A stretch of DNA of 46,361 nt from Vulcanimicrobiota bacterium. GTDB taxonomy: Bacteria > Vulcanimicrobiota > Vulcanimicrobiia > Vulcanimicrobiales > Vulcanimicrobiaceae. The notes under the pieces are model-generated. The model was not told the DNA's origin, did not search any database, and saw only the letters and a program-made list of their open reading frames with translations. A program made the translations under genes and the position numbers. The stretch lies in the NCBI GenBank assembly GCA_003135555.1, contig PLCF01000058.1, forward strand, positions 27,433-73,793, given 5' to 3'. Within the stretch, counting starts at the first letter, position 1, and each line of letters begins with the position of its first letter. This document shows positions 7,750 to 10,530 of this stretch, one piece after another.

Positions 7750-8223
7750 TCAACACCGTCTACCGCGCCTTAGCATCGGCGCTGGTCGTGGTCCCGACGC
7801 CGGTCGCAACGCCAGCCGCACTCGCAAAACGAGCAGCGCGTCGTTGAGCGCGCTCTGCTGCGCGCCGGCGACCGGCTTGAAGAGGATTCGAGCGAAGCCG
7901 ACCGCGCCGGGATCGTTCGGGCTTGGCGTCCAGGAGTGCACGCCGACGGCGCCGCTGTGCACGTAGTAGAGAATCGTGTTGGCCGCGCAGCCGGGATAGT
8001 CGTGCTTGCCGCTAGTGGTGGTGACGTGAACGGGCGGGACGGTCTGCGGCAGGACGTCGTGATTGCTCGAGAAGGACGGCGCGCTGCCAAGGCCCTGCAC
8101 GTAGTAGGAGAAGACGAGCGGAGCGTGCGGGAAGTTCTGCGCCATGAGCGGCGCGACGCGCTCGTAATGGGTGAGAATCGCGCGCTGCTGCGGTGCAGTG
8201 GCGCGAGAAGATGCGTGGTTCAC
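7750..8223 (-). pseudogene. Truncated, divergent LigD polymerase-domain (AEP)-like ORF
   Basis: HYERVAPLMAQNFPHAPLV..., ILYYVHSGAVGVHSWTP..NDP..., ALLVLRVRL follow the N-half of LigD PolDom by recall. The catalytic DxD is absent and the ORF ends at 157 aa. Confidence 0.55.
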
Positions 8224-8356
8224 CCGAAACCGTCCCTCATGGAAATCGTGGCTGATGGCAAAGGGTAGCTAGGGAGGGGTTGGTTCCTGCCGAAGCACGC
8301 ACCCGGTCACGGCGGCATGCCAGACAGATGGCACACGCCTCACTTACGGTGATCGG

Positions 8357-9106
8357 GTGTATACTGGAGGTGCAGATGAGCGACAGTCAGAGTCAGCCCC
8401 GGCCGCCAGCGCCGGCGCCCCCGCCGCCTCCTCCCCCGACCGCGGCGGACATGATCAAGGACCTTCGGGAGAGCGACCCGCTCCGCGGGATTCGGCGTTA
8501 GGCCGAGCCCCGGACCCGGGGAAATACACGCTTGCGGATGAGCCGCTCAGCGTCGACGCGGATATCGACTGGCGGTATCTCTACGGCTTGGTCCTCGAGC
8601 GAACCGAGCGCGAAGAAGACCGCGGAAAAACGCTTGACTCTAAAGTAACGACGCTGTTGGGTGGCGTCGTTGCGTTTATCGGTTTCTCGTTTCGTGTGAA
8701 TGCATCGGTCTGGAGTGCGGGCGCCGCGCTACTGTATTTCATACCGCTCGCAGTCCTTTTCGACGCGCTGTTGACGAAGCGCGGCAAACGAGCACCAACG
8801 GCAGAGTCGCTCACGAAGTATTTTCCAGCGTACCCTGTATCCACGCTAAAGGAAAGCGTCGACGCGATGCTCATCGCCGACGCAGCAAATGAGAGGATCA
8901 ATGACCGGAAAGCCGTGCGCGTTGATATTGCCGCGATCATGACCGGCATCGTGACGATAGTCGTGCTCATCACTCAATTCGCCCTGGCATTGGAGCCCGC
9001 AAATGTCCAAACCGGGTCACCTCAAGCAAAAGCCGCCCGTGTCCCCGTCGCAGCAGGACACGGCGGAGCGTCCCGAGGCCAGCCGCATGGTCCAAATCAT
9101 CCGTAA
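8357..9106 (+). CDS. 3-TM membrane protein resembling Pycsar-type (PycTM/DUF5706-like) effectors; start uncertain
   Basis: R..TLDSKVTTLLG before TM1, TM2 VWSAGAALLYFIPLAVLF, INDRKA before TM3 IAAIMTGIVTIVVLITQF. The only upstream in-frame starts are GTG 8357 and TTG 8588. Confidence 0.7.
   Translation: MYTGGADERQSESAPAASAGAPAASSPDRGGHDQGPSGERPAPRDSALGRAPDPGKYTLADEPLSVDADIDWRYLYGLVLERTEREEDRGKTLDSKVTTLLGGVVAFIGFSFRVNASVWSAGAALLYFIPLAVLFDALLTKRGKRAPTAESLTKYFPAYPVSTLKESVDAMLIADAANERINDRKAVRVDIAAIMTGIVTIVVLITQFALALEPANVQTGSPQAKAARVPVAAGHGGASRGQPHGPNHP
8376..8501 (+). CDS. 41-aa proline-rich small protein
   Basis: GGAGG 5 nt before the ATG; MSDSQSQPRPPAPAPPPPPPPTAADMIKDLRESDPLRGIRR. Confidence 0.65.
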   Translation: MSDSQSQPRPPAPAPPPPPPPTAADMIKDLRESDPLRGIRR

Positions 9107-9221
9107 GAGCGGCGAGGCCCCAGAGTCAAGCGACATCGCGGGGCATACAAAAGTGCGGATCCCGCGAGCGGTACGTCCTAGCCGCGCGGCGCTGCCATCG
9201 GTAGGGCAAAACGGGGATTGA
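9003..9221 (+). CDS. 72-aa small protein overlapping the 3' end of the TM gene
   Basis: GGAG 7 nt before the ATG; shares motif PEASRMVQIIRKS with the upstream peptide (PTAADMIKDLRES). Confidence 0.55.
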   Translation: MSKPGHLKQKPPVSPSQQDTAERPEASRMVQIIRKSGEAPESSDIAGHTKVRIPRAVRPSRAALPSVGQNGD

Positions 9222-9300
9222 AGGGGTATCCTGGCTTAAGAAACTCGCTGGACGGTTCTCGCGGATCATCCTGCCTTCGTTTGCCATCCGGAAGAAGGTT

Positions 9301-9633
9301 GCGGAGACTCGTTATACTTATACGGTTCTCGTTGACGACAACTTCCATTACACCGACGAGTCGGAACGGTACACGTTCGGCACGTTCCCGAGCCTTGAAG
9401 CAGCGATCGAGGCCTGCAGGCACATTGTGGACGATTTTCTAGAAGAGAGCTGCAAAGGGGTCCAGCCTTCAAGTGACGCGCTGTACGAGCACTATGTGGC
9501 GTTCGGGCCCGATCCGTTCATCGTGACCGACGACCCATACCTTCGACCGGTGCCATTTTCAGCGTGGACATACGCGCGAGAACAGTGCTTCCGGAGGTTC
9601 GGAAATCCGGAAACGCCGGAATCCAGGTCTTAG
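9301..9633 (+). CDS. Conserved hypothetical protein lacking a canonical start (possible pseudogene)
   Basis: Frame open 9205-9633: YTVLVDDNFHYTDESERYTFGTF...AAIEACRHIVDDFL...FGPDPFIV...FSAWTYARE. First ATG/GTG/TTG is at 9427. Confidence 0.6.
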   Translation, partial: AETRYTYTVLVDDNFHYTDESERYTFGTFPSLEAAIEACRHIVDDFLEESCKGVQPSSDALYEHYVAFGPDPFIVTDDPYLRPVPFSAWTYAREQCFRRFGNPETPESRS

Positions 9634-9682
9634 CCCGTATTCGCCAGTCTGAAAACTGGAGAAAATACCTCCGGATAAATAG

Positions 9683-10105
9683 CTACCGCCAGCGGTCGCC
9701 CGGCGTGGTCACGTACGTCTTCCAGAGGTATCCCCACGGAAGCACGAGCGGCACGATCACGACGCCCAGGAAGATGCCTGAGAACGAATCGGCGATGTCG
9801 GGATCCAGCGTGTGGCCCAGGTACGGGGGAAGCCACGCTGCGAGCACCCAGATGAGCTTCCACGTGAATTCGAAGATCAGCAGCGGCATCATCCTGACCG
9901 GATACCGCATGCCGAGGAGACAGAGCAGCGTAAGCGCGCCAAAGAAGCTCATCCCGACACCATGCCAGAAATCCCACGGCCGCGTGTGATGCAGGATCGC
10001 CGGCCACGTTCGCGAGCCCTATGCCAAACCAATCAGGAGATACGAAGCCCTGAGCACGTAGAGCCGATAAAGCGGAAGCTCCGGCCTGGATTGCATCTGG
10101 ACCAT
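9683..10105 (-). pseudogene. Conserved 4-TM membrane protein with in-frame amber stop
   Basis: MVQMQSRPELPLYRLYVLRASYLLIGLA*GSRTWPAILHHTRPW...GMRYPVRMMPLLIFEFTWKLIW...PWGY; TAG at 10021-10019. Confidence 0.75.
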
Positions 10106-10530
10106 GCCGTACCTACGGCGTCATTTGCCGACATGTTTCATTTAAATTGAATACAGAAGGGGTTCTGAGTATCCGATGAACACCGACCCCGACACCCTCC
10201 CAGTGGAGGGGCGAACGTTGGTTTTCCCTGGTCTCGTGCGCACGAAGCGGCAGTCGCGGCTCGTTAGTGCTTTGCAAGCATCAACACGTCGCGCGTGAGA
10301 ATCTGGCTCTCCGGCAATGAGTTCATCGAGCGATACCAACAACGCGGGGGCTCCAGCGTAGCCGCCCTCATTCGTGCGCCTGCCGACAAGACTGTGGACA
10401 GGCGCGGCCGAATGCAAAAAAGCTGCGCCAGACCCCGGTTTTCGCTGGTAACCCGGCGCGGGGTTGGAACTGATCAAGGGGGTCGGCGGCCGTTCGCGGA
10501 GTCGTTCCCTCGAGCCGCGAAGCTGGCGCC

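Follow-up and report, generated by a model that had tools for sequence, protein, structure and literature searches.

The locus described here raises a simple question: when two small proline-rich reading frames overlap the ends of a membrane-protein gene in another frame, are they genes in their own right, and what could they be doing beside the membrane protein? The stretch of DNA analysed (the window) comprises 46,361 nucleotides of contig PLCF01000058.1 from a Vulcanimicrobiota bacterium, and all features discussed lie on its forward (+) strand. The gene for a protein with three transmembrane helices (3-TM; the TM0 frame) spans 8357..9106 and encodes 249 aa from GTG 8357 to TAA 9104-9106. 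The first small ORF, ORF A (sORF1; 8376..8501), encodes a proline-rich peptide of 41 aa from ATG 8376 to a TAG stop at 8499-8501, contains a run of 7 prolines and is preceded by the Shine-Dalgarno sequence GGAGG at 8366..8370, 5 nt before the ATG. The second, ORF B (sORF2; 9003..9221), encodes 72 aa from ATG 9003 to TGA 9219-9221, has a GGAG at 8992..8995, 7 nt before its ATG as read from the window sequence, covers the C-terminal tail of the TM protein and runs 115 nt past the TM stop. Both are in the +1 frame relative to the TM gene. A preliminary description of the window had listed these two ORFs with their ribosome-binding sites and common frame, together with a motif placed at 8436-8474 in ORF A and at 9072-9110 in ORF B, and all of these are found in the sequence at exactly those positions. 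On balance we lean towards reading the locus as a compact, conserved module in which one or two proline-rich peptides, read in the +1 frame across the ends of the 3-TM gene, would act as partner or regulator of the 3-TM protein.

The conserved core of the TM gene, delimited by homologue comparison to about 8525-9010, gave an AF2 model with a pLDDT of 91.9 and three long hydrophobic helices. These lie at about 8645-8692, 8708-8773 and 8927-8992, limits that derive from the model and the sequence and not from a TM predictor. The tails that are overlapped by the small ORFs (N-tail, 8357-8509; C-tail, 9008-9103) are low-complexity, as had been noted, and are predicted to be disordered (pLDDT below 50 for residues 1-51 and 218-241). 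A D-x-K motif before TM1 and a lysine before TM3 had also been noticed, and both hold across the TM family, which has no exception at D94 and hardly any at K96 and K185.

Several lines of comparison indicate that ORF A is a real small gene, conserved and linked to this TM gene. Its ATG, its Shine-Dalgarno sequence and the motif [DEQ][MF]I.D....DP[LF]R.[IFL]R[RHF]-stop are present in 20/20 near loci, all of which carry an SD-like GGAG, GAGG or AGGA 4-16 nt 5' of the small-ORF ATG. Conservation is confined to the C-terminal half, which reads DMIKDLRESDPLRGIRR and is followed by the TAG stop. Against an HMM built without the window copy, ORF A scored an E-value of 1.1e-14 and ranked first of the 781 segments of the window. 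In a database of 5.8 billion proteins, 25 called small proteins match the ORF A family at E<=0.01 (best 7.5e-14), and these called relatives reach 78% identity (P0089). Over the last 18 codons in 17 loci, pairwise differences fall at ORF A codon positions 1, 2 and 3 in the proportion 1204/957/1400. In the same comparison, synonymous codon differences amount to 444/1855 in the ORF A frame, 57/1866 in the TM frame and 342/1924 in the third frame. Judged by this substitution pattern, the ORF A frame is under purifying selection. The HMM, the codon-position counts and the database relatives uphold the preliminary reading of ORF A as a selected gene. That description further expected gene callers to miss the peptides; yet the 25 relatives of ORF A are already called in public data, and the annotation of the genome itself includes a 60-aa protein called in the frame of ORF B.

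How the TM protein is started bears on how the two genes are arranged. GTG 8357 precedes the ATG of ORF A by 19 nt, and a GTG occupies this position in 17/20 loci, the exceptions being L008, L011 and L037. In the seven near loci for which in-frame starts were listed, canonical starts other than this GTG do not keep a constant place ahead of the conserved core, and in the window the next canonical start of the TM frame after 8357 is TTG 8584. Across the small ORF the TM frame has no stop codon in any of the 20 loci, which places the start of the TM protein at GTG 8357. Under synonymous resampling of ORF A the probability that the TM frame stays open was 0.17-0.74 per locus and about 1e-7 jointly, the joint value being overstated given that the loci are mutually related. 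Comparison of the loci shows the TM frame over ORF A to be held open only, with no protein-level constraint, so that the N-tail is a spacer. By the same comparison, in the clade of the window the TM frame has been extended upstream to the GTG, which leaves ORF A wholly nested in the TM gene, in its +1 frame as read from the sequence. The preliminary description saw a mere overlap of ends here; the conserved GTG places ORF A inside the TM gene.

The sequence just upstream of this GTG has a further regularity. A -10-like hexamer, TACGGT, lies at 8345..8350, 6 nt before GTG 8357, and is a putative promoter of a leaderless mRNA. A NANNNT hexamer is separated from the GTG by 6 nt in 15/17 of the loci that have this GTG and by 7 nt in the other 2/17, the background frequency being 0.028. 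When the first RTG of 1389 long ORFs of this genome was inspected, TANNNT-N6-RTG occurred 27 times, as against about 5 at other spacings. A strict sigma-70 scan of 8150-9750 gave no promoter. The hexamer 6 nt before a conserved GTG suggests that the TM gene may start leaderless at GTG 8357.

The pairing of the two genes extends well beyond the near clade. In the 8 distant loci inspected (26-31% TM identity), a proline-rich ORF ending ..[ST]VQV.LREG.PPPR.. stands upstream of the TM gene, in varying frames; in L013 and L021 it was recognised by eye only (HMM E 5.3 and 0.34). The ORF A HMM also matched 5/8 loci that had been left out of its building, at E<0.01. Scans of genome contigs gave only one locus and of metagenome contigs only three. 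Comparison across the distant loci shows ORF A as an ancestral companion of the TM family, which in distant relatives is a separate upstream cistron. The pairing recurs in all relatives examined, and the two genes therefore almost certainly work together.

In several genomes the module sits in stable, syntenic housekeeping surroundings (folD/hydrolase, cystathionine synthase/EamA), which is not typical of defence islands. A small gene downstream (9205..9633), with no canonical start before GTG 9427, lies outside the module and was not found in 300 other genomes of the family; contigs of other sequencing runs join it at 9241 with a different upstream sequence. Two DNA runs showed no differences to the window over 8250-9296. 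In two runs labelled RNA-Seq, the contigs cover only this downstream gene and a proline-codon repeat.

The standing of ORF B is less settled, and we give an even chance to the view that only ORF A is functional, ORF B being a non-functional, alternative-frame shadow of the disordered TM C-tail and the intergenic DNA whose likeness to ORF A arose by chance. The 13-residue match between the two peptides has 5 identities and a BLOSUM62 score of 27, which was reached by 393/2000 shuffles of both peptides, so the shared motif of the preliminary description is, as a pairwise match, at chance level. Any significance of the likeness can come only from comparison with other loci. Three profiles of the ORF A family gave E-values of 0.37 and 0.98 for ORF B or, with the third, left it outside the top 8. 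In the two closest relatives with DNA the ORF B motif is degraded (RNGSRRD in L003, RDGGNRG in L029); ORF B is absent from most loci, and most loci do not have any TM C-tail. A sORF2 profile search of 348 genomes of the family returned G000 and G121 plus one weak match. In the database of 5.8 billion proteins the only match was the 60-aa call of the genome itself, but overlapped ORFs are rarely called by gene callers, and this absence is weak evidence.

Against the view of a shadow stands L015, a distant paralogue from the same genus whose TM core is 29% identical to that of the window. It has a second small ORF with the same position, frame, MSK start and RKSGE block as ORF B. Both open with ATGTCCAAA, and the block RMVQIIRKSGEAPES of ORF B has its counterpart in SVLQPVRKSGEVPRS; between these two, 4 changes are synonymous when read in the frame of ORF B, and none is in either of the other frames. 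A 15-nt block, CCGTAAGAGCGGCGA (9101..9115), lies across the TM stop codon and is identical in L015. Conservation thus runs past the TM stop, which the TM frame cannot explain. The blastp comparison of ORF B with the L015 ORF gave E 0.32, and nothing with composition correction, which fits a shadow; however, the second small ORFs of L015 and L016 match an HMM built from sORF1 only, at 1e-5 and 5e-5. In addition, 11 close homologue proteins end in [HR]P-stop, where the ORF B frame would read an aliphatic residue or threonine followed by RK. ORF B is, from these comparisons, most likely a diverged second copy of the ORF A peptide gene that would have been kept in a few lineages. Of the paired peptides first proposed, the part concerning ORF A stands, whereas ORF B did not prove to be a member by the HMM but has a clearly related second ORF in one distant paralogue.

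For a module of membrane protein and peptide, the following scheme can be proposed. The mRNA would start at or next to GTG 8357; ribosomes would begin the TM protein at the 5' GUG in leaderless fashion and the peptide at the AUG at +20, guided by its Shine-Dalgarno sequence, and the two starts may compete on one 5' end. The peptide could then be devoted to a membrane-perturbing effector, as its partner or regulator, in place of the Pycsar cyclase, with labile inhibition or gating as the possible logic of the module. A co-fold of the TM core with ORF A, a check that the preliminary description had suggested, passed weakly: the score was 0.34 and that of the best control 0.00, with a partner pLDDT of at least 59 and at least 95% of contacts agreeing between runs. 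The mark used is reached by 116/157 solved complexes and 2/215 mismatches, and scores up to 0.60 are more often wrong than right. A bolder version, which we regard as improbable, is that this cyclase-less relative of Pycsar pores is governed by its overlapped peptides and not by a nucleotide signal. Competition between the leaderless GUG and the SD-led AUG, 19 nt apart, would make the ratio of pore to peptide report the state of translation initiation, and the pore would open on a shift to leaderless initiation, or once the labile peptide is lost in a cell that is stressed or attacked by phage.

The ORF A product would accordingly serve the membrane effector as a partner peptide or as a regulator of its translation, and several features of ORF A suit a leader acting in cis no less than a partner acting in trans. 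On the former account, ORF A is a leader or arrest peptide with no role in trans, in which polyproline stalling and termination at a conserved TAG next to where the TM core begins tune TM output; we hold this to be unlikely, if still deserving of weight. Only the C-terminal ~18 residues of ORF A are conserved, and the N-terminal proline tract differs in length. In the near clade only 0-8 codons separate its stop from the conserved TM core that follows, and distant TM starts overlap or closely follow the stop (TAGTG in L017, TTG at +10 in L013, TTG at +23 in L027). The stop is TAG in 16/20 loci against 33% genome-wide, and PPP runs need EF-P. However, in the clade of the window the peptide ORF begins only after the start of the TM frame, and therefore the classical coupling of an upstream leader cannot apply there. 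In L015 and L016 the second small ORFs, at the 3' end, have no same-strand gene after them, and the co-fold result, weak as it is, also speaks for a partner.

It is very improbable that ribosomes join ORF A and the TM core into one protein by a conserved, programmed -1 frameshift where ORF A stops. The strong Shine-Dalgarno sequence and the ATG do belong to ORF A, the TM frame of the window does lack a canonical start as far as TTG 8584, shortly before the core the TM frame invariably has a YTA codon overlapping the ORF A stop, and some gene calls of distant homologues show a LRAIRR-like string in frame with the core. However, the shift site has no slippery heptamer (X XXY YYZ), and P-site re-pairing is impossible at last codons as varied as CGT, TTC, ACC, CAC and TTT. 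A late shift needs no open TM frame across the whole of ORF A either, yet this frame is open in 20/20 loci and the GTG at -19 is conserved. The model was dropped on account of the missing slippery site and the open TM frame. An in-frame fusion, considered for the LRAIRR string of P0045, was likewise set aside, the string being a shadow of the small ORF in another frame. The view that ORF A is spurious, an alternative frame that happens to be open in a GC-rich, disordered N-tail, with only the 249-aa TM frame coding, can be given hardly any credence: many assemblies do call a long TM frame starting MYTGG.DER, but the conserved residues and the synonymous variation sit in the ORF A frame and not in the TM frame, and neither the HMM match nor the called relatives would be expected of such an ORF.

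Among known systems, the module of 3-TM protein and peptide is nearest to PycTM, the transmembrane effector of the antiphage system Pycsar (PF18967; PADLOC PDLC02363 and PDLC02364), with which it shares a small 3-TM protein and a cytosolic N-terminal helix bearing D-x-K before TM1. The PADLOC PycTM models match 25/35 and 15/35 members of the TM family, with a best E of 2.3e-7, although these matches are individually weak and cover only about positions 20-80 of the profiles. In the ESM Atlas, the nearest clusters carry PF18967 PycTM, with a score of 0.93. On the other side, the window protein itself has no match at E<=1 in Pfam or PADLOC, the PycTM models included, and PF18967 matches 0/35 family members at E<=1. 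A PycTM HMM run on the genome gave only one match of E 0.78, at another place. Foldseek against the PDB returned no match at E<=0.001, a sequence profile found nothing in the PDB, and a search of NCBIfam gave nothing meaningful. A wide structure search retrieved generic long-helix bundles only, at Z<=10, which is below what is meaningful for helical proteins. The Pycsar-type layout first proposed is thus retained as a likeness of the family, without a match for the window protein, and we take the TM protein to be only remotely PycTM-like. The absence of an adjacent cyclase, also remarked on at the outset, was confirmed among the neighbours in the window and the 63 flank ORFs of 24 loci; the 7 Guanylate_cyc matches of the genome are all on other contigs. 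In contrast to PycTM of Pycsar, the TM locus has no adjacent cyclase, and its conserved neighbour is the proline-rich small ORF instead.

In a preprint, PycTM is assigned to the pJV1-SpdB3 family of 3TM proteins, and the related PucTM is stated to form a hexameric channel (bioRxiv 10.64898/2026.08.12.744502). Through that assignment, and at the level of the family, the TM protein also resembles SpdB3 of the Streptomyces conjugative plasmids pJV1 and pSVH1, a 3TM family that occurs without a cyclase as well. Expression of SpdB3 is reported to be highly toxic to E. coli (PMC4447253), which would be indirect evidence for a toxin-antitoxin or abortive-infection pair, among the functions first proposed for the locus. 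Unlike SpdB3, the TM locus has no plasmid-transfer genes (traB, other spd) nearby. A small-protein family that had been unannotated is now linked to PycTM/SpdB3-like effectors, otherwise known as driven by cyclic nucleotides, and the link suggests that such effectors may have another route of control.

With respect to translation, work on mycobacteria reports that a 5' GTG supports leaderless translation (PMC4633059), and the -10 hexamer 6 nt before the GTG is alike in the leaderless 5' RTG mRNAs of Actinobacteria. Those mRNAs differ from the transcript proposed here, whose 5' end would also bear, 19 nt further on and in another frame, a second start led by a Shine-Dalgarno sequence. This likely dual start, leaderless plus SD-led on a single 5' end, would occur in Vulcanimicrobiota/Eremiobacterota, whose rules of gene expression are largely unexplored.

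The nesting itself has a familiar counterpart. The Rz/Rz1 pair of phage lambda consists of a membrane-protein gene and, wholly contained in it in the +1 frame, the gene for a small proline-rich protein; both genes are expressed. ORF A is likewise small, proline-rich and nested in the +1 frame of a membrane-protein gene; it differs from Rz1 in having neither a lipobox nor a signal peptide. A further difference concerns the stretch of host gene under the overlap, which in the TM gene is an unconstrained spacer and not functional sequence. The locus thus offers a clean and comparatively supported case of bacterial dual coding, in which one frame is selected for its protein and the other for openness alone.

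The three-transmembrane (TM) frame and the two overlapping small ORFs of the preliminary description are all present in the sequence precisely as claimed. The TM frame, TM0, runs on the plus strand from a GTG at 8357 to a TAA at 9104-9106 and encodes 249 aa. ORF A (8376-8501, plus strand, 41 aa, GGAGG 5 nt ahead of its ATG) and ORF B (9003-9221, plus strand, 72 aa, GGAG 7 nt ahead of its ATG) both lie in frame TM0+1. The window has about 70% G+C overall, with a dip to 57-60% over about 8450-10400 that suggests acquired DNA; this stretch contains the module, a truncated gene (9205-9633) and an 89-aa hydrophobic minus-strand ORF (9683-9952).

On comparative sequence evidence, ORF A is a real gene. 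All 20 near loci, those of the window's clade (45-100% TM identity), have a TM0+1 ORF that starts with ATG, encodes 37-62 aa and is served by an SD-like sequence. The N-terminal half of these peptides is proline-rich and variable, and the C-terminal half is conserved, with [DEQ][MF]I.D....DP[LF]R.[IFL]R[RHF] followed by the stop. In the 17 loci with the standard C-terminus, pairwise differences peak at ORF A codon position 3 (1400) and are fewest at position 2 (957), and the synonymous share of differing codons is 24% for the frame of ORF A, against 3% for TM0 and 18% for the remaining frame. Moreover, an HMM built without the window's copy ranks ORF A first of 781 stop-to-stop window segments (E 1.1e-14), and among 5.8 billion proteins 25 called small proteins match the profile of the family, sORF1 (best E 7.5e-14), one of them 78% identical to ORF A and one, from an Eremiobacteraeota MAG, named merely hypothetical protein. 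Throughout the near clade, the TAG of the small ORF overlaps a YTA codon of the TM frame, a rare leucine codon. In one related locus (L037, contig C246 of genome G405) the usual small-ORF stop is lost, the peptide is 20 codons longer, and the -19 position is GCG, not GTG, with a GTG standing 3 nt further upstream; this copy may be decaying or rewired.

Judged by its conservation, the partnership of the small ORF with the TM gene is ancestral. A proline-rich ORF stands upstream of distant TM homologues (26-31% identity) as well, with the C-terminal motif ..PPPPPTPQSVQV.LREG.PPPR.., and intermediates (..EEMIRPVRENDILRRFRH, ..GDSMRVPFREGADVPKGR) bridge the near and distant versions. An HMM of six distant peptides ranks ORF A first of the 781 window segments (E 0.013). 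At 31 of 34 distinct loci an HMM match (E<0.01) shares the strand of the TM gene and lies no further downstream than its start, 25 of these having built the HMM and one being a duplicate; among eight loci independent of the HMM five match, L013 and L021 have the motif by eye only, and L018 is without upstream sequence. Relative to the TM gene, the distant small ORFs occupy frame +0, +1 or +2, and are therefore separate cistrons. Relative to the small-ORF stop, the distant TM start is found as TAGTG in L017, as TTG at +10 in L013 and +23 in L027, and in L015 only as CTG at +15; in L016 and L019 no TM start follows the stop, and TM0 stays open a long way upstream.

The comparisons thus establish co-conservation, nesting and a selection pattern in both frames, from which we infer that the peptide is the dedicated partner or regulator of the TM protein. 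A partner acting in trans is favored by the position of the peptide ORF downstream of the TM start in the window's clade, and by the 3' small-ORF copies, which precede no gene. That the small ORF is instead a cis-acting leader of the TM gene seems rather unlikely, even though conservation is limited to the C-terminal 18 residues, the end of the small ORF adjoins the start of the TM core, and its stop codon is TAG in 16 of 20 near and five of seven distant loci, as opposed to 33% of the genome's long ORFs. In the passages found by full-text searches for PycTM/Pycsar and SpdB3/pJV1, neither a proline-rich small-ORF partner nor such an overlap is mentioned.

The arrangement raises the question of where TM0 is entered. 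The only other canonical in-frame start is TTG 8584, where the annotation of the window's own genome begins the protein (P0001, 172 aa); since this start would remove YTLADEPL..VDWRYLY, a segment kept in all relatives, the point where translation enters TM0 must lie ahead of 8525. A -1 frameshift at the ORF A stop, weighed against an upstream start, would account for that stop always falling on a TM0 YTA codon just before the conserved core, but was rejected because the last ORF A codons vary (CGT, TTC, ACC, CAC, TTT) and offer no slippery site. A start upstream of ORF A demands that TM0 stay open across the whole of it, and indeed all 20 of the loci are free of a TM0 stop there. When each ORF A is resampled synonymously, the -1 frame stays open only 17-74% of the time, with joint probabilities of 1e-7 (genome codon usage) and 1e-13 (TM-core usage), both overstated as the loci are related. 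In 17 of the 20 loci a GTG stands exactly 19 nt ahead of the ORF A start codon, preceded by a hexamer whose second base is A and whose last is T (TACGGT in the window, CATGAT in many other loci; background frequency 0.028) at 6 nt in 15 loci and 7 nt in two. Among 1389 long ORFs of the window's genome, TANNNT-N6-RTG is found at the first RTG 27 times versus about five for other spacings, a roughly five-fold enrichment which hints at leaderless genes as a common trait of the organism. A strict sigma-70 scan around the module found no promoter. In mycobacteria, a 5' ATG or GTG is described as necessary and sufficient for leaderless translation (Shell et al. 2015, PMC4633059), and the window's GTG likewise would sit at the mRNA 5' end. 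The open frame, the kept GTG, the -10-like hexamer, its genome-wide enrichment and the mycobacterial precedent together argue for a leaderless mRNA whose first nucleotides would be the putative start GUG 8357. The TM protein would be read from this 5' end, across an unconstrained spacer of about 50 residues, and the peptide from the SD-led AUG at +20. Directly 3' of the GTG, by the SD (8360-8365 and equivalents), TATACT (or TACACT, TATAGT) is kept in most near loci; this may represent another -10-like element or belong to the ribosome-binding region.

Whether ORF B is a functional second copy is a matter of roughly even odds. The motif that it was said to share with ORF A does not hold up as evidence by itself, a 13-mer match as good being reached in 393 of 2000 shuffles, and its scores against the small-ORF HMMs are at noise level (E 0.37 and 0.98). 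The C-tail is missing from most loci, the ORF B motif reads RNGSRRD (L003) and RDGGNRG (L029) in the two closest relatives with DNA, and profile searches of 348 family genomes and the 5.8-billion-protein database found no further copies. On the other hand, an unbiased HMM scan of all loci showed that L015 (E 1e-5) and L016 (E 5e-5) each have a further small-ORF match where the TM gene ends. Both matches share the strand of the TM gene, lie in frame +1 and are as far from the TM start as ORF B is. The genome that carries L015 belongs to the same genus, but the TM cores of L015 and the window are just 29% identical; the second ORF of L015 opens with ATGTCCAAA (MSK), as does ORF B, and carries SVLQPVRKSGEVPRS, the ORF B counterpart being RMVQIIRKSGEAPES. 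L015 and the window share an identical 15-nt block that spans the TM stop codon, and conservation runs on beyond that stop. Over 16 codons, the ORF B frame has four identical, four synonymous and eight non-synonymous (four conservative), versus 0 synonymous changes in the other two frames. Eleven close homologue proteins share a conserved [HR]P-stop ending, which in the ORF B frame would read aliphatic/Thr then RK, and the window's own annotation has a 60-aa gene call in this frame. The TM tail of L003 (genome G099) has a TGA at ~1987, directly after TM3, yet the following tail sequence is still conserved with relatives; a +1-frame ATG begins 5 nt ahead of this TGA.

The neighbors of the module in the window are a glycosyltransferase, a TonB-dependent receptor and a minus-strand ORF of 157 aa (7750-8223), probably a LigD primase-polymerase fragment judging by a sub-threshold match (E 7e-5, 23 bits against a cut-off of 27.4) to only the first 98 of 254 profile positions. 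The downstream small gene (9205-9633, plus strand, ..YTYTVLVDDNFHYTDESERYTF..) has no ATG, GTG or TTG before 9427, and a search of 300 other family genomes did not find it. Two other runs gave contigs that align to it only from 9237/9241 on, one differing upstream of 9241, where its sequence has an ATG; the window copy thus looks 5'-truncated at a recombination joint. Flanks of 24 related loci sort into a few syntenic housekeeping contexts: folD with an alpha/beta hydrolase and redoxin; a Cys/Met PLP enzyme with EamA and a molybdopterin oxidoreductase; and AbiEii with a 2Fe-2S thioredoxin-like protein. In G099, the closest genome relative, the module has just upstream of it an AbiEii-type nucleotidyltransferase toxin gene (L003 99-869, minus strand; Pfam E 6.6e-16). 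As the preliminary description had stated, and unlike in Pycsar, no cyclase adjoins the TM gene, either among the window neighbors or among the 63 flank ORFs of the 24 loci; the genome has seven class III cyclase domains, every one on another contig.

Near homologues of the TM protein number 22, and clustering at 50% gives 59 representatives; the gene is carried by 20 of 401 phylum genomes searched, all within one family, and by 13 of 44 genomes of the genus, some with two or three copies. The core is modeled confidently (pLDDT 91.9) as a long N-terminal helix into TM1, TM2, a loop containing a short helix, and a further long helix into TM3; in the 249-aa frame, the first 51 and last ~30 residues have pLDDT <50 and no secondary structure. 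Structure searches with the protein returned nothing specific. PycTM has been placed in the pJV1-SpdB3 family of 3TM proteins, and the related PucTM described as a hexameric channel (bioRxiv 10.64898/2026.08.12.744502); expression of SpdB3 is reported as highly toxic to E. coli (Thoma et al. 2015, PMC4447253). The proposed PycTM likeness is supported in part. Pfam PF18967 matches 0 of 35 diverse family members at E<=1, and the window's protein matches no Pfam, NCBIfam or PADLOC model. The two PycTM models of PADLOC match 25 and 15 of the 35 (best E 2.3e-7), always over the D-x-K/TM1-TM2 part of the profile, and the closest ESM Atlas clusters are PycTM-bearing (score 0.93; 209/256 features; 17/30 hits). 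We therefore read the window's protein as a remote PycTM/SpdB3-like 3TM protein outside the curated PycTM family.
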